NCBI RefSeq assembly: GCF_003019035.1
Contig: NZ_CP027447.1
DNA length: 64,000 bases
Strand: one strand, 5' to 3'
Source: Escherichia coli
Lineage (GTDB): Bacteria > Pseudomonadota > Gammaproteobacteria > Enterobacterales > Enterobacteriaceae
The position numbers and the translations under genes are program-made. The notes under the pieces were generated by a model that was not told the DNA's origin, did not search any database, and was given only the letters and a program-made list of their open reading frames with translations. This document shows, one piece after another, positions 2,908 to 58,502 of the stretch. How positions within the stretch are numbered: the stretch's first letter is position 1; every line of letters starts with the position of its first letter.

Positions 2908-3054
2908 GGTCATTCTCCTTTACGATGATAACCGTCGCGTAAGCAAAAAATTGCCCCATTTTTTTGGATTCCTCAGCGACAACAACTGTCGATTTTTAGT
3001 AAATATCTATCCGGTACGAAGCCCGGCCTCTTGGTATGAATGATTGGTTTGAAG

Positions 3055-3092
3055 CAAAAAATAACCGACGCTGATGAAACGTCGGTTTTTAG
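3055..3092 (-). terminator. putative bidirectional rho-independent terminator downstream of yeeY
   Basis: palindrome AACCGACG-ctgatgaaa-CGTCGGTT flanked by an A-run upstream and a T-run downstream. Confidence 0.45.
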
Positions 3093-3173
3093 TCATTTTT
3101 TGACAGCGGCGCATTGTGCCTAAATGGGGGAGAAATGACAAGAGAATGAGAGGCTTGTCATAATAATTTTTCT

Positions 3174-5399: not shown

Positions 5400-5450
5400 A
5401 TGACACGCGTTCAATTTAAACACCACCATCATCACCATCATCCTGACTAG
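5400..5450 (+). CDS. hisL: his operon leader peptide
   Basis: 16-codon ORF MTRVQFKHHHHHHHPD with seven consecutive His codons. Confidence 0.9.
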   Translation: MTRVQFKHHHHHHHPD

Positions 5451-5513
5451 TCTTTCAGGCGATGTGTGCTGGAAGACATTCAGATCTTCCAGTGGTGCAT
5501 GAACGCATGAGAA

Positions 5514-5548
5514 AGCCCCCGGAAGATCATCTTCCGGGGGCTTTTTTA
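5514..5548 (+). terminator. his attenuator (rho-independent terminator hairpin)
   Basis: AGCCCCCGGAAGAT-CATC-TTCCGGGGGCT followed by TTTTTT, between hisL and hisG. Confidence 0.85.
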
Positions 5549-5595
5549 TTGCGCGGTTGATAACGGTTCAGACAGGTTTAAAGAGGAATAAGAAA

Positions 5596-12729: not shown

Positions 12730-13437
12730 ACCAGCCGCGCCCTAACAGGCGCACACGATCTGACATTTGCATCCAACTTCGTTACTTACGGCCCGTAAAC
12801 GGGCTGCCCGGATAGGGAATCGATAACTGCTCTCCCATTTTATCCTCTTCAAGCTGGTGCTTTATGTAATCCTGTATCTTCGCCGTGTTCTTACCCACCG
12901 TATCGACGTAATACCCTCTGCACCAGAACTCCCTGTTCCTGTATTTGAATTTCAAATCAACAAACTGCTCGTAAAGCATTAGACTGCTTTTCCCTTTCAG
13001 ATATCCCATAAAGCCGGATACGCTCATTTTGGGCGGGATCTCCACAAGCATATGGATATGATCTGCACAGCATTCAGCTTCCAGAATCCGTACACTTTTC
13101 CACTCACACAGCTTTCTCAAAATACAGCCTATTGCTCTACGCTTCTCTCTGTAGAACACCTGTCTTCGGTATTTTGGCGCAAATACTATGTGATATTTAC
13201 AGTTCCATCGGGTGTGCGCTAAGCTCTTTTCGTTCCCCATTGGGACCCCCTTTTGATTTCTTGTTTGACACTTGCAGTTGCCAGACCGCAAGGTGTTTTA
13301 ACAAATCAAAAGGGGTTTTAATAACTGGCTCAAAGCTGAAAGCTTTCCGGAACCCCCAGCCTAGCTGGGGGTTTTCTGTGCACAAAAAAACGGGCAAGGT
13401 GTCACCACCCTGCCCATTTTCTTTAAAACCGAAAAGA
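12730..13437 (-). mobile_element. IS200-family (IS200/IS605) insertion sequence, about 0.7 kb; ends approximate (+/- 15 bp)
   Basis: single Y1/HuH transposase gene plus the characteristic structured end (hairpins AACCCCCAGCCTAGCTGGGGGTT and GGGCAAGGTGTCACCACCCTGCCC at 13365-13430) upstream of tnpA; no terminal inverted repeats expected for this family. Confidence 0.7.
12782..13240 (-). CDS. tnpA: IS200-type Y1 (HuH) transposase TnpA
   Basis: 152 aa from MGNEKSLAHTRWNCKYHIVFAPKYRR...; HuH motif (HIHMLV) and C-terminal catalytic Tyr region (YIKHQ). Confidence 0.85.
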   Translation of the reverse strand: MGNEKSLAHTRWNCKYHIVFAPKYRRQVFYREKRRAIGCILRKLCEWKSVRILEAECCADHIHMLVEIPPKMSVSGFMGYLKGKSSLMLYEQFVDLKFKYRNREFWCRGYYVDTVGKNTAKIQDYIKHQLEEDKMGEQLSIPYPGSPFTGRK

Positions 13438-14421: not shown

Positions 14422-14562
14422 TACCCTAACAGACGGAAAATTTCAGGTCGCCATAGTTTAGCGATAATCTGTATGAATGCCATAGGATAAACAATAAATA
14501 TAATGAATTGTTACATGAACATAGATACCAACTACCGCCAAAAATCATCTGATTACAGATAG

Positions 14563-31200: not shown

Positions 31201-32285
31201 TACTGGCGGCCCTCATAGTTCTGTTCAATCCACGACTGATAAGCACCGCTTTTCACATTCTCAACCCAATTTGTATTAGCCAGATACCATTCCACCGTTT
31301 TACGAATACCGCTCTCAAACGTTTCTTGCGGTTTCCAGCCCAATTCGCGGCTAATTTTATCGGCATCAATTGCATAACGGCGATCATGCCCTGGGCGATC
31401 AGCAACATAGGTAATTTGCTCACGATAAGATTTCTCTTTCGGGACTATCTCATCCAACAAATCACAAATAGTGAACACTACGTCGATGTTTTTCTTTTCG
31501 TTGTGTCCACCAATGTTATAAGTTTCGCCTGCTTTACCTTCGGTTACGACGGTATATAACGCTCGAGCATGATCCTCTACATACAACCAGTCGCGGATCT
31601 GATCTCCTTTGCCATAAATAGGTAATGCCTTACCTTCCAGTGCATTAAGAATAACCAGTGGAATAAGCTTTTCCGGGAAATGATAAGGACCATAGTTGTT
31701 CGAGCAATTAGTCACAATGGTCGGTAAACCATAAGTACGTTTCCATGCGCGAACCAAATGATCGCTGGAAGCTTTAGAAGCAGAATATGGACTACTTGGC
31801 GCGTATGCTGTCGTTTCCGTAAATAGCGGCAACGTTTCATTGCTATTTACTTCATCCGGATGGGGTAAGTCACCATACACCTCATCAGTAGAAATATGAT
31901 GAAAACGGAAGTTTTTTTTCTTTTCATCATCCAGACCAGACCAATAATTGCGCGCCGCTTCTAAAAGAACATAAGTACCCACAATATTGGTTTCAATAAA
32001 TGCCGCAGGGCCAGTTATTGAGCGGTCAACGTGGCTCTCTGCTGCCAGGTGCATCACCGCGTCTGGCTGGTGCTGTGCGAAAATACGAGCCATCGCTTCG
32101 GCATCGCAGATATCTGCATGCTCAAATGAATAACGTTCAGAATCAGAAATTTCAGCGAGTGATTCCAGGTTTCCGGCGTATGTTAATTTATCGACATTAA
32201 CAACACTATCTTGCGTATTATTTATTATGTGACGAACAACAGCAGAACCAATAAATCCTGCGCCACCAGTAACAAGTATCTTCAC
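31200..32285 (-). CDS. rfbB: dTDP-glucose 4,6-dehydratase
   Basis: 361 aa from a GTG start ([21 protein letters not shown]); the ORF-track 384-aa reading is an upstream over-extension. Confidence 0.9.
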
Positions 32286-32359: not shown

Positions 32360-32398
32360 CACGCTACCGCCCCTGGCTTAACAGCTACCAGAGCACTG
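32360..32398 (-). promoter_or_regulatory. JUMPstart element with ops site (GGCGGTAG) in the rfb 5' leader
   Basis: minus-strand sequence CAGTGCTCTGGTAGCTGTTAAGCCAGGGGCGGTAGCGTG; ops octamer at 32364-32371. Confidence 0.75.
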
Positions 32399-40628: not shown

Positions 40629-41999
40629 TTACTCGTTCAGCAACGTCAGCAGAGTTCGCGTTCGCGCTTCCATCAGCGGCACATCACCGCGCGATTCCAC
40701 ATTCAACCGCACCACCGGTTCGGTGTTGGAGGAGCGCAGGTTAAAGCGCCAGTCGGCAAAGGTCATGCTGATGCCATCGGTGCGATCCACCGCCAGCGCC
40801 TCACGGCTAAAATGCTGTTCCACGCGGTTAATCGCCTCAACGGGTTGCGCCAGTTTGCTGTTGATCTCACCGCTTGCCGGAAACGCTGCCATCCGGTCGC
40901 GCACCAGTTCGCCCAGCGTTTTTCCTTTCAGGCACACCAGTTCGGCGACCAGCAGCCACGGGATCATGCCGCTGTCGCAGTAAGCGAAATCACGGAAATA
41001 GTGGTGGGCGCTCATTTCGCCACCGTAGATGGCGTCTTCCTTGCGCATACGTTCTTTAATAAAGGCGTGTCCGGTTTTCGACATTACCGGGGTGCCGCCT
41101 GCGGCAGTCACCACATCAACGGTGTTCCAGGAGAGACGTGGATCGTGGATGATCTTCGCGCCGGGATTTTTTTCGAGGAACGCTTCTGCCAGCAGGCCGA
41201 CAATGTAGTAGCCCTCAATAAACTGCCCTTTTTCGTCAAACAGGAAACAGCGGTCAAAATCGCCATCAAAAGCAATGCCCATATCCGCGCCGTGTTTAAT
41301 GACCGCATTGCGGGTGTCGTCGCGACATTCCGGCAGCAACGGGTTAGGAATACCGTTGGGGAAATTGCCGTCCGGCGTGTTATGCACTTTGATTAACTCC
41401 ACCGGTGCGCCGAGGGCTTTAAAGCGGGCTTCGATGGCGTCCACCACCGGACCCGCTGCGCCGTTCCCGGAGTTGATCACCAGCTTGAGCGGCGTAAGGT
41501 TTTTGATATTGATATAACCGAACAGGTGATCAACGTATGCATCACGCAGGTTGATTTGCTGATAGCGACCGCGTTTGGTTTCATCAACGGGAGGAAAGTC
41601 GTTGGCTTCTGCCAGACGCTGGACGTCGCGCAGTCCGGTATCGCCGCTGATCGGGCGAGCCCCTTCGCGCACCAGCTTCATGCCGTTGTAATCCATCGGG
41701 TTATGGCTGGCGGTAACTTCGATGCCGCCATCCACGCCGAGATGGAACGTGGCGAAATAGATTTCTTCGGTGCCGGACATACCGATATCCAGCACATCGA
41801 CGCCCGCATCCTGTAAACCTTTCGCCAGCGCCAGTTTTAAGGTTTCGCTGGTGAGGCGGACATCACCGCCTAACACAATGGTTTTCGGTTTGAGAAATTC
41901 GCCATAGGCGCGACCAATGCGCCAGGCGATATCTTCATTCAGTTCTTCGCCTAATTTCCCGCGAATATCATAGGCTTTAAAGCAGGTTAATTTTTTCAT
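40629..41999 (-). CDS. cpsG: phosphomannomutase, colanic acid copy
   Basis: 456 aa from [14 protein letters not shown]; TASHNP phosphoserine motif. Confidence 0.9.
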
Positions 42000-42099
42000 G
42001 TCGTTACCCTTTTTCAGGCAATAGTTGGCCCTGACCGAAACGGCCAATTTTGTTTTTTCGTTATTTACCGGAGAATTAATCCGGTTGATTATTCAACGG

Positions 42100-43538: not shown

Positions 43539-44762
43539 TTATCCCCGAATATCATTTATAAATTGACGTAACACGTTCTCTTTATCGAGCGTGCGTTCGG
43601 CATATTCACGTGCCACCGTGTTGTGTTTGGGCAGCAGGAGCGCCTGACGGATCCCCGCCACCAGCGCCTCGACCGATTCCGGTTCTACGCAAACCGCAAT
43701 GCCCGGAAAGGTTTCGCAAAGCTGTCCCAGTTCTGTGTGGGCTTCAGCAGTAATCACCGCGTTACCGCCTACCGCCAGAATATTGGTCAGTTTCGACGGC
43801 AATACGGCATCTGCCGCGCCGCGTTTTTGCACCACCAGATGGCAATCCCCCATCTTCAGCAGTGCGGGTAAAGCGTCATACGATTGCAGCGGGAAAAATT
43901 GCATGTTGCGCAGTCCACGCTGCTGCGCCATTTTTTCCAGCCGCGCTTTGCCGCCGCCCTGCCCGACAATGGCAAAAATCAGCGGTTCATCGCGCAGACG
44001 ATCGGCAGCTTCAATAACGTTTTCCAGCCCCTGCTTTTCACCAATATTGCCGGAGTAAAGAATGATTTTTTTGTTATCCGGCAGGTCAAGCTGGTTACGA
44101 AGGGCGTCAACATCGGCATCTGCAACATGCTGAAAACGGGCAATTTCCGACCAGTTGGGGAAGAAGATGACGTTTTCCGCCGCCACGCCTTTTTCGATGG
44201 CTTTATTCATCATCGAACGCGAAATCGTGGAGACGTTATCGACGTTATTCAGTCCGCTACGTTCGAACGCCGTTGCCAGCTGTGCCACTTTGCCGCCTTT
44301 GCCTTTTCCGGCAAGGCCCAGCCCCAGCATGGCGTCCACTTCGTAATCCTGAATATGTAGCACCGTGCGCGCACCAGACAGTTTCGCCAGCAGGCGCATT
44401 CCCGGCGTGCAAAACAGCGTTGGTACCACGCCGATAATGCGATCCGGCTTCCAGCGACGTTGCGCCATCAGCGGAAAGAAACTGCTGGCGGCAAAACTGC
44501 CGAGATGCAACAGGCGTTTCAGGGTGCTCGGCTGTTTTGGTACGTACAGCGGGCAGCGCCACACCGTGGCGGCCCCCTCTTCTCGTTTGTACCGCCAGGC
44601 GGAATAGTTCTCGCCCACCTGCCATTGCGGGTAGTAAGGCGGTGCGGTAATAACCCGCACCTCATGACCTTGTGCCGCCAGCCATTCCACCATCTCGCCG
44701 GTGTACTTGCCGATGCCGGTTAACTCCGGCGAGTAGTTAATGCCGTAGACCAGTATTTTCAT
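43539..44762 (-). CDS. wcaI: colanic acid biosynthesis glycosyltransferase WcaI
   Basis: 407 aa; conserved order. Confidence 0.85.
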
Positions 44763-52414: not shown

Positions 52415-52448
52415 AGGTTGTTCTCCCGGCTTATGAGCTGGTTTGCTT

Positions 52449-52482
52449 GCCGGATGCGGCGTGAACGCCTTATCCGGCCTAC
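52449..52482. repeat. REP (repetitive extragenic palindrome) element between wzc and wcaA
   Basis: GCCGGATGCGGCGTGAACGCCTTATCCGGCCTAC matches the E. coli REP consensus by eye. Confidence 0.5.
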
Positions 52483-52506
52483 GGGGCGGTGCGAATGCAG
52501 GCGTCG

Positions 52507-55120: not shown

Positions 55121-56260
55121 TTACCAGTTATGAATGTCGCTGGCTGTATCCGTCATGTAACGGACACCGCTAATAGTTGGCAGCAACTGATTGATCAGAC
55201 GGTTCCAGCGGGATACCGGTGCGGTGGTGACATACACCACGTCATAAGGTTGCAGGCGGAATTCTGTCGCCATCACCAGCGACGTGGCATCGGACATATC
55301 CAGCTGGTAGATATTGGCAATCTTGCCGTTACGCCCGCCCTCGCCTTTCAACGGACGAATGACAAAGATGCCGCTGGCGTTGGAGGTGGTCATGTCGATG
55401 CCTTCAGCATTACCCAGGGCTTCAGTCAGGGTCATGCCGCTAAAGTCCATTTTCAGGGTGCTCTGTTTCTTCACTTCACCCATCACAAACACTTTCAGAT
55501 CATCATTACGCGGCACGTAGAGAATATCGCCGGGGTAAAGCAGTCGGTTCTGATTGAGGTCGCCGTTTTGCATCAGCGCCTGCAAAGAAATGCGCTCTTC
55601 ACGACCATTGTGTGTTAGCACCACGTTGCGCCAGTCAGCGGTGTCGGTCAGGCCACCTGCGGCGTTGATGGCGTCGAGAATGGTCAGTGGCACGTTGGTG
55701 ATCGCCTGTTGACCGGATTTATTCACCTGACCGGAGATATAGGCTTTTTGCGAGCGGAAGGCGGCGATATTAACGTCCACCTGCGGGTCAGCGATGTACG
55801 TCGCTAAGCGCCCGGTAATATCACTGCGGATTTCAGCGAGCGTTTTCCCCACCACGTGAACTTTGCCGATATACGGGTAGAACATGGTGCCGTCAGGCTG
55901 TACCCAGTTGCCGGTGTCGCTGGAGCTGCGGTACTGACCGGCTGGCGTGGTGAGTTCCGGGTGATCCCAGACGGTGACATTAAGAACGTCTCCCGGCCCG
56001 ACGCGATACTGATAATTCGCGATCTCACTTTCCAGCGTCATATTGGGGCGCGCTACATTCGGGCGTGGGCGTAATTGGTCAATCAGGCGCGGGGTCAGCG
56101 GATAAACATTCACCATTTTGTCGAGATCGAAATCAGCGTCCTGCTGTTTGATGACGTCTTTCCCCATCGTCGACATATTGCTGCCCGGAAGTACTGTGCA
56201 ACCGCTTATCAAGGTTACTGACACCAATAATGGCATCAATTTCATTTTGGATTTCATCAT
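55121..56260 (-). CDS. wza: outer-membrane polysaccharide export lipoprotein (OPX)
   Basis: 379 aa, lipoprotein signal ending in lipobox LISGC. Confidence 0.9.
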
Positions 56261-56438
56261 TGTTTATTTATCACTTTGGCAGAGTAATTATCCTGTGCAC
56301 TATTAATAGCAATGTCGCCATGCACATTTACCTTGCAGTTAATTGAATAAAAATTTAACTGGCATCAGTCCTAAAAAAATTGATTTCATCCGCAGGCTAT
56401 TGACAGAATAATTCAGACTGGTCTTTCAGGCATCCAGA

Positions 56439-56477
56439 CACGCTACCGCCCCTGGCTTTTTAGCTACCAATACACTG
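56439..56477 (-). promoter_or_regulatory. JUMPstart-like element with ops site (GGCGGTAG) in the colanic acid operon leader
   Basis: CACGCTACCGCCCCTGGCTT on plus, i.e. AAGCCAGGGGCGGTAGCGTG on minus, about 185 bp upstream of the wza start; ops at 56443-56450. Confidence 0.7.
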
Positions 56478-56918
56478 ATTTAGCTTAATTTTTAAAACCC
56501 TCTCAACATACAGTCGTTGATGAGAAAGGGTTATTGCGGAAATTAACTTCCGAATATAAGGTGACATTATGGTAATTGAATATTGGCTCTCCAATAATGC
56601 AGGAGGAAGTGTTACAGCTAACGGAATAGCAGGCAAGGTAACAATTCGGCAATTGGCTATTTTTAAGAATTATATTAAGTGTCATTCAATATGGTTTTTA
56701 GGAGTTTCTTTAGGTTGACAATATTTAATATAGTGTCTCCACATGCGATATTTCTTAAATAATGTTTTATTATTACCACTTTTAATTCAGGGATAATGTG
56801 AGGTTATAAACCTCAAATAATATGAGATAAATAGTGCTGCAACATTGCATTTTTGCCCCGATTTATCCATGATCGAATTGTGACATTTGTCATACAACGA
56901 ATAGGTTTTGTACTTACT

Positions 56919-58502
56919 ATGGAATGGATTGCCGATCCGTCTATCTGGGCCGGGTTAATCACGCTGATTGTGATCGAACTGGTCCTCGGCATTGATAACC
57001 TGGTCTTTATTGCCATCCTCGCCGAAAAACTACCGCCGAAGCAGCGCGACCGCGCACGGGTTACCGGGCTCCTGCTGGCGATGTTAATGCGCCTGTTACT
57101 GCTGGCGTCAATCTCCTGGCTGGTCACCCTGACTCAACCGCTGTTCAGCTTCCGCTCGTTTACCTTTAGCGCCCGCGACTTAATCATGCTGTTTGGTGGT
57201 TTCTTCCTGCTGTTCAAAGCCACGATGGAGCTGAACGAACGGCTGGAGGGGAAAGACAGCAATAACCCCACGCAACGCAAAGGTGCGAAGTTCTGGGGGG
57301 TGGTGACACAAATTGTGGTACTGGACGCCATCTTCTCACTCGACTCGGTGATTACCGCCGTCGGGATGGTCGACCATTTACTGGTCATGATGGCCGCCGT
57401 CGTTATCGCTATTAGCCTGATGTTGATGGCCAGCAAGCCCTTAACGCAATTTGTTAACAGTCACCCGACGATCGTTATTCTCTGCTTAAGCTTCCTGTTG
57501 ATGATTGGCTTTAGCCTGGTGGCAGAAGGTTTCGGCTTCGTCATACCGAAAGGCTACCTGTACGCTGCTATTGGTTTCTCGGTGATGATCGAGGCGCTCA
57601 ATCAGTTGGCTATCTTTAACCGGCGACGTTTTCTTTCCGCTAACCAGACACTGCGCCAGCGGACTACCGAAGCGGTAATGCGCCTGCTTAGCGGGCAAAA
57701 AGAAGATGCGGAACTGGACGCCGAAACCGCGTCCATGCTGGTGGATCATGGTAACCAGCAGATCTTTAATCCGCAGGAACGGCGGATGATTGAGCGGGTA
57801 CTTAATCTTAACCAGCGTACCGTCAGCAGCATTATGACGTCGCGCCACGATATTGAGCATATCGATCTCAACGCGCCGGAAGAAGAAATCCGCCAGTTGC
57901 TGGAGCGAAATCAGCATACGCGGCTGGTGGTTACCGACGGTGATGACGCAGAAGATTTGCTCGGTGTTGTTCACGTTATCGACCTGCTACAACAGTCTCT
58001 GCGCGGCGAACCGCTCAACCTGCGGGTGTTGATTCGCCAGCCGCTGGTGTTCCCGGAAACCTTGCCGTTGTTACCTGCCCTGGAGCAGTTCCGTAATGCC
58101 CGCACGCACTTTGCTTTTGTAGTGGATGAGTTTGGCTCGGTGGAAGGGATTGTGACATTAAGTGACGTCACTGAAACCATTGCCGGTAACTTGCCGAACG
58201 AAGTGGAAGAGATCGACGCCCGCCATGATATTCAGAAAAATGCGGACGGTTCCTGGACGGCGAATGGTCATATGCCGCTGGAAGATCTGGTGCAATATGT
58301 GCCGCTGCCGCTGGATGAAAAACGTGAATATCACACCATTGCCGGGCTATTGATGGAATATTTGCAGCGTATTCCAAAACCTGGCGAAGAAGTTCAGGTG
58401 GGGGATTATTTGCTTAAAACGTTGCAGGTGGAAAGCCATCGCGTGCAGAAGGTGCAAATTATTCCGCTACGTAAGGATGGCGAGATGGAGTACGAGGTGT
58501 GA
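56919..58502 (+). CDS. yegH: TerC-family membrane protein with CBS pair and CorC/HlyC transporter-associated domain
   Basis: 527 aa from [16 protein letters not shown]...; N-terminal multi-pass region, C-terminal CBS/CorC-like region. Confidence 0.8.

Follow-up and report, generated by a model that had tools for sequence, protein, structure and literature searches.

A JUMPstart element with an ops site in the leader of the Escherichia coli colanic acid operon

Colanic acid synthesis is treated in the literature as RfaH-regulated. The copy of JUMPstart in the cps leader was reportedly first noted by Stout and by Stevenson in 1996, with which later citations agree, and the title of a 2014 paper by Navasa in FEBS Lett concerns the dependence of the colanic acid genes on RfaH for their expression. 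The two closest described systems are the JUMPstart element (Hobbs & Reeves 1994; RF01707; cps copy Stout 1996), from which the element described here shows no material difference, being the same 39-bp element in the same place, and the ops/RfaH regulon (Bailey, Hughes & Koronakis 1997; Zuber 2018; Hustmyer 2022), in which the wza site is among the eight RfaH-bound ops sites of strain CFT073. A 2023 paper traces a JUMPstart-RfaH mechanism for the colanic acid operon to Stout 1996 and to Hobbs & Reeves 1994, and genes downstream of wzc have been reported to need RfaH, in that study's own wording 'presumably cps' (PMC3673037).

How RfaH recognises ops has been worked out at the atomic level. The ops site is a consensus pause at which the non-template strand forms a hairpin in the transcription bubble, with a C3:G8 pair, that flips out T6 (PMC5995543). 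RfaH is no longer recruited after the substitutions G4C, G5A, A7T or G8C, and the pause is driven by T11-G12; it is as non-template DNA that ops acts, and both in vitro and in reporter constructs the 12-mer alone is enough to recruit RfaH (PMC5995543). A genome-wide catalogue of ops sites was obtained by RfaH ChIP-seq in CFT073 in 2022 (PMC9765446; Hustmyer 2022), with RfaH bound at only 8 of 42 ops-like sites, those in operon leaders, and intragenic sites unbound. Data set S2 of that study lists wza with the ops sequence GGCGGTAGCGTG starting 190 nt before the first gene and the RfaH signal 'Y', the site being in the untranslated leader on the non-template strand. In wild-type cells in rich medium wza was untranscribed, initiation being silenced by H-NS; in a strain lacking hns and stpA, RfaH was present on wza-wcaM, the signal was gone in an rfaH deletion, and a sigma-70 peak was found upstream of wza once silencing was lifted (PMC9765446). 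The same authors present Rho-dependent and H-NS-dependent blocks as general targets of RfaH. The colanic acid operon differs from rfb, waaQ, kps and hly in being silent in rich medium and, compared with other RfaH operons, its occupancy has been seen only after deletion of hns and stpA, while the role of RfaH under natural Rcs induction is less well documented.

Element identity and genomic setting

The window, meaning the whole stretch of 64,000 nucleotides of E. coli DNA that was analysed, carries the 39-bp JUMPstart on its minus strand from 56477 to 56439, in the wza-yegH intergenic region (Table 1). The covariance model RF01707 (JUMPstart; curated gathering threshold 35 bits) matched this interval end to end, at model positions 1-38 of 38, with a score of 57.3 bits and E=1.6e-10 over the 64-kb window. 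The initial annotation, made from the sequence without database searches, had drawn exactly these boundaries and had called the element 'JUMPstart-like'; its identity as JUMPstart stands and the '-like' falls away, the element being a full JUMPstart. Within it the ops core carries C3, G4, G5, T6, A7, G8, T11 and G12, all the bases that mutagenesis identified as important (PMC5995543), and both the sequence and the -190 offset of the core are identical to those of the CFT073 site (PMC9765446).

The JUMPstart ends 179 nt before the wza ATG (56260) and the ops core starts 190 nt before it, which makes the earlier estimate of about 185 bp a fair one. According to RefSeq and the ORF calls, wza is followed by wzb and wzc, and yegH is transcribed divergently from 56919 on the plus strand, leaving a wza-yegH gap of 658 bp (56261-56918). 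The GC content of the leader is 31-39%, versus 50-60% in the flanking genes, and such an AT-rich leader fits H-NS binding. In the five best-matching E. coli genomes no RefSeq feature lies under the 39-mer. The JUMPstart is on the coding strand, 5' of a polysaccharide-synthesis operon, an arrangement also seen in 11 other taxa.

The end-to-end RF01707 match and the perfect ops 12-mer bear out the proposal that the colanic acid leader holds an ops/JUMPstart element with a partner at rfb, and the RfaH dependence that this proposal implied agrees with the coincidence of the site with the wza ops site that was RfaH ChIP-positive in CFT073 lacking hns and stpA. We are therefore highly confident that 56439-56477(-) is a true loading site for RfaH in the colanic acid operon, kept by selection and already known. 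The JUMPstart before wza is not new, since published work covers the element and its family as well as the mechanism and the binding of RfaH at this site.

Table 1 Features of the window discussed in the text (conserved blocks refer to the alignment of 12 orthologous wza leaders)
Feature	Position	Strand	Sequence or evidence
JUMPstart of the colanic acid (wza-wcaM) operon leader	56439..56477	-	CAGTGTATTGGTAGCTAAAAAGCCAGGGGCGGTAGCGTG; Rfam RF01707, 57.3 bits
ops core	56439..56450	-	GGCGGTAGCGTG; exact match to GGCGGTAGnnTG; non-template strand of wza
JUMPstart stem-loop half	56452..56470	-	UUGGU/GCCAG, 5 pairs, 9-nt loop; Rfam consensus structure line
wza, first gene of the operon	55121..56260	-	ORF; RefSeq: polysaccharide export protein Wza
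Block A	56730-56695	-	conserved in 12-leader alignment
Candidate RcsAB box A	56699..56712	-	TAAAGAAACTCCTA; 10/14 to TaAGaatatTCctA by eye; exact TCCTA half-site; in block A
Block B	56680-56661	-	conserved in 12-leader alignment
Candidate RcsAB box B	56664..56677	-	TAATATAATTCTTA; 10/14 to consensus by eye; in block B
Block C	56645-56603	-	conserved in 12-leader alignment
Candidate core promoter, block C	56603..56645	-	-35 TTGCCT 56636-56631, 17-nt spacer, -10 AACACT 56613-56608
Block E, wza 5' UTR downstream of ops	56380-56345	-	TTTTTAGGAcTGATGCCAGTTAAATT; strongly conserved in 12 leaders
Block F, into wza ATG	56300-56261	-	GCACAGGATAATTACTCTGCCAAAGTGATAAATAAtCA; strongly conserved in 12 leaders
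REP-type hairpin, wzc-wcaA gap	52449..52478	-	GCCGGATAAGGCGTTCACGCCGCATCCGGC; sequence and fold; without U-tract
Sister JUMPstart/ops, O-antigen rfb leader between galF and rmlB	32360..32398	-	RF01707, 61.1 bits
STnc490 Hfq-binding sRNA	13250-13373	-	Rfam, 146 bits
STnc240 sRNA	3054-3128	-	Rfam, 68 bits
Histidine operon leader	5426-5549	+	Rfam, 133 bits

Other Rfam matches above threshold in the window, those to STnc490, STnc240 and the his leader, fit the his-gnd-rfb-cps region of E. coli. An algC RNA motif (RF02929) was also matched within the colanic acid cluster, at 42004-42053(-), with 78.2 bits against a threshold of 33.8. It overlaps the first bases of an ORF at 40629-42047(-), whose predicted TTG start need not be real and which, judging by its place in the cluster, is presumably the phosphomannomutase gene cpsG/manB.

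Comparison with the rfb copy and conservation

The window holds two exact copies of the 20-mer AAGCCAGGGGCGGTAGCGTG, one at 56439-56458(-) and the other at 32360-32379(-), where chance would yield 0 copies, and no further match to it at up to three mismatches was found in the 64-kb window or in 100 shuffles. The exact GGCGGTAGnnTG pattern likewise has two copies in the window, one in the wza leader and one in the rfb leader. The initial annotation was thus correct on the 20-bp core common to the two copies, exact at both sites, and on two elements in the same direction within 25 kb, the ops cores being 24,079 bp apart and both on the minus strand. The alignment of the two elements that it had proposed as a check gives 33 identical positions out of 39, with the ops core identical throughout and the flanks unrelated; the six differences comprise three bases 5' of the hairpin and three loop bases. 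The rfb copy has the loop TGTTA where wza has TAAAA, a first stem pair C-G rather than U-G, a more stable stem (-5.6 vs -2.7 kcal/mol) and a shorter distance to its first gene (74 nt, to the rmlB start at 32285, vs 179 nt), and it serves an operon that, unlike the colanic acid operon, is constitutively transcribed.

The 20-bp identity of the cps and rfb leaders might be put down to a recent duplication, or to gene conversion from one leader to the other, given that the copies share the exact 20-mer and one more 8-mer and lie on the same strand about 24 kb apart. The loop variants, however, sort by operon type, with TAAAA, TAATGA, TGAA and similar loops in colanic-type wza leaders, TGTTA, TGTTG, TGTCG and similar loops in rmlB leaders, and no overlap between the two sets across 41 elements. 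As the loops group by operon type and not by genome, the cps and rfb copies are inherited separately. With the flanks of the two copies unrelated and the same core present in many genera and in Aeromonas, recent copying is extremely improbable, and the shared 20-mer reflects selection on each copy.

Three more GGCGGTAG cores were noted on the minus strand of the window, at 14528-14539, 43765-43776 and 57026-57037 (listed at 14532, 43769 and 57030). They were dismissed as ops sites for want of the T11-G12 pause dinucleotide; moreover, the 43769 core lies in the ORF at 43539-44762 and the 57030 core inside yegH, and such intragenic ops sites are unbound by RfaH in vivo (PMC9765446). The core at 43765-43776 reads GGCGGTAGGCGG and has the same orientation as the colanic acid gene in which it lies (ORF 43539-44762). 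All three are probably inert.

One kilobase of the window was tested against the complete E. coli genomes, and the stretch was present in 4,839 of 5,426. The 39-mer was identical in 4,140 of the 5,426 and had one mismatch in 437, while the whole 658-bp gap was found at ≥95% identity in 4,820 genomes and at ≥99% in only 991; within E. coli the JUMPstart is more uniform than its surroundings, the genomes not being independent samples. Across genera, species-representative genomes were scanned with the pattern GGTAGCN{3,6}AGCCAGGGGCGGTAG, which returned at least 120 loci, including Citrobacter, Salmonella, Enterobacter, Pantoea, Erwinia, Serratia, Rahnella and Aeromonas; the pattern requires the element, and the scan therefore cannot show how often wza leaders are without JUMPstart. 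The 2.5 kb downstream of each scanned element was probed for genes. Among the matches listed, about 20 elements (19 scored) lie ~180 nt before a colanic-type wza of 88-100% protein identity, 22 directly 5' of rmlB and 12 before more distant wza homologues.

In an alignment of 12 orthologous wza leaders the ops-to-ATG spacing is 177-184 nt throughout (including Citrobacter, Salmonella arizonae and Atlantibacter), and the JUMPstart, at 56480-56439, stands out as a conserved island between unconserved stretches, with no invariant columns at 56600-56511 and almost none until ~56490. Conservation at 56468-56443 is forced by the search pattern and is circular there; the unforced bases, namely the 5' CAGTG and ops bases 9-12, are conserved as well. 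Among the matches listed (119 elements of all operon types), C9 is conserved in 99%, G10 in 82%, T11 in 96% and G12 in 77%. In these 119 listed elements the 5' border of the 39-mer coincides exactly with a rise in information content from ~0 to 0.7-1.9 bits, and past ops position 12 the value is back to background.

This conservation bears on whether the wza copy might be an inert relic, with colanic acid expression set entirely by Rcs-dependent initiation. Such a reading draws on the silence of the operon under standard conditions and the dominance of RcsAB and H-NS in its control. Against it, published ChIP shows RfaH physically recruited at wza once the promoter is active, the element is conserved perfectly from genus to genus next to leader sequence that has fully diverged, and the 39-mer is nearly invariant within E. 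coli. An inert relic is very improbable, because an inert 39-mer would have drifted like its flanks.

Two further observations came from the scan. The four Aeromonas elements have a 3-nt loop, GAC, and read CAAT or CAAC, not CGTG, at ops positions 9-12, so that they keep the recognition core without the T11-G12 pause dinucleotide. A perfect enterobacterial-type JUMPstart was also found on short contigs assigned to Arthrobacter sp. (three loci) and to Erysipelotrichia, Peptococcaceae and Opitutaceae MAGs (one locus each), that of the Peptococcaceae MAG being followed by an rmlB 95% identical to E. coli rmlB. These occurrences in Gram-positive or unrelated assemblies are most likely contaminating enterobacterial contigs.

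Promoter, leader and stem-loop

Promoter-like and RcsAB-like conserved blocks lie 125-270 nt upstream of the JUMPstart. Block C contains a candidate core promoter whose -10 hexamer is AACACT here and AACAAT in most other genera, and from its position we infer a wza transcription start near 56601; the leader would then be ~340 nt long and the JUMPstart would occupy roughly +125 to +163. The only consensus match of a sigma-70 scan, TGGAGA-16-CATAAT at 56593-56566, is disfavoured, lying in DNA unconserved across genera. A leader of roughly 590 bp, as the initial annotation had described it, is unlikely, because transcription would then start almost at yegH and the 658-bp gap must also house the cps promoter, its activator sites and the yegH promoter. 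Every candidate promoter is upstream of the JUMPstart, in agreement with published ChIP. A wza start downstream of the element is contradicted by the RfaH ChIP signal there, since RfaH loads only on polymerase transcribing through ops, and also by the sigma-70 ChIP peak upstream of wza.

A search with the published RcsAB consensus, TaAGaatatTCctA (PMC3950696), at up to three mismatches gave no match in the wza leader; the boxes in blocks A and B, aligned by eye, are put forward as candidate RcsAB sites. A 49-aa 'hypothetical protein' that RefSeq/PGAP places across the cps promoter region in the reverse orientation, at 56569-56718(+), is probably a spurious call because it lies partly in DNA without cross-genus conservation. 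Nearer to yegH, some 50 nt 5' of where that gene begins, a conserved palindrome reads TGACAAATGTCA at ~56866-56877(-) (TGACAATTGTCA in other genera). The block around it is shared by 10 of the 12 taxa, and the palindrome has the look of an operator or a promoter sequence serving the divergent gene.

Between ops and wza, the 12 leaders gave a consensus fold of -3.8 kcal/mol with compensatory changes in 0 of 15 pairs, and hence no evidence of a structured RNA in this region. No obvious Shine-Dalgarno sequence precedes wza. Blocks E and F could be protein or sRNA sites, or could serve RfaH-assisted ribosome loading.

In Rfam, JUMPstart is classed among the cis-regulatory RNAs and given a conserved stem of 5 pairs; the authors who discovered it likened it to the EAR/epsC RNA of Bacillus. 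The main active part might accordingly be the RNA stem-loop ('JUMPstart RNA'), which could bind a factor or modify the elongation complex in the manner of the EAR/epsC antitermination RNA, with the DNA-level ops secondary. Consistent with such a role, the stem is kept in the wza and rfb copies while the loop differs; the single stem position left free by the search pattern is C or T, both of which pair with G, in 114 of 120 elements among the matches listed; and the 27 conserved bases 5' of ops are unexplained by RfaH recognition. The stem at wza (pairs U-G, U-A, G-C, G-C and U-G) is nevertheless weak, with a computed energy of -2.7 kcal/mol, and the JUMPstart region folds no more stably than shuffled sequence (z = -0.73, not significant), its minimum-energy fold lacking the Rfam stem. 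Double-sided compensatory changes are unscorable, most stem bases being fixed by the search pattern, and ops has been shown to act as non-template DNA, with the 12-mer alone sufficing (PMC5995543). A mainly RNA-level action is therefore improbable. Like JUMPstart, EAR is found at the 5' end of long polysaccharide operons and renders polymerase resistant to termination, but it is a structured RNA of unrelated sequence that is independent of RfaH, whereas JUMPstart/ops works through the non-template strand and a paralogue of NusG. The two are alike in function only, and JUMPstart is not in the EAR family.

The geometry of the stem allows one further reading, in which DNA-level recognition of ops by RfaH is retained. 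In the wza copy the base of the stem lies 12 nt before ops U11. Hairpin-stabilised pauses, of which the his leader pause is an example, typically have a spacing of 12 nt between the hairpin and the RNA 3' end. JUMPstart could then be a composite pause, in which a nascent-RNA hairpin encoded by the 27 bases 5' of ops and the backtrack-type ops together hold polymerase longer, giving scarce RfaH time to load. The geometry and the conservation are seen here and the function is speculation, and we hold this reading to be rather unlikely; if true, it would explain why 39 bp are conserved though 12 bp suffice in reporters.

Proposed mechanism and relevance

For an RfaH loading site acting through the non-template strand, the following course of events is proposed, the strand, position and conservation of the element being given here by the sequence and RfaH occupancy and ops recognition by the literature. 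RcsA-RcsB would activate the upstream promoter, and RNA polymerase would enter the leader and pause at ops (GGCGGTAGCGTG), where, in the open bubble, the non-template strand would fold into a tiny hairpin exposing G5 and T6. RfaH would recognise G5 and T6, bind polymerase in place of NusG and remain bound, and the polymerase so modified would resist pausing, Rho-dependent termination and H-NS blocks to the end of the ~23-kb wza-wcaM operon. RfaH may also aid ribosome loading on wza, which is without an obvious Shine-Dalgarno sequence.

As to the internal signals that such a polymerase would read through, we infer one candidate in the 92-nt wzc-wcaA gap (52415-52506). The REP-type hairpin at 52449-52478(-) may be an internal attenuator, read through by RfaH-modified polymerase, or else an mRNA-stability element. 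It may also be the barrier behind the RfaH need of the genes downstream of wzc (PMC3673037).

The value of identifying the JUMPstart before wza lies in correct annotation. It places the 23-kb colanic acid operon under two layers of control, initiation (RcsAB, H-NS) and elongation (RfaH), which is of use for engineering colanic acid production and for interpreting the phenotypes of rfaH mutants.
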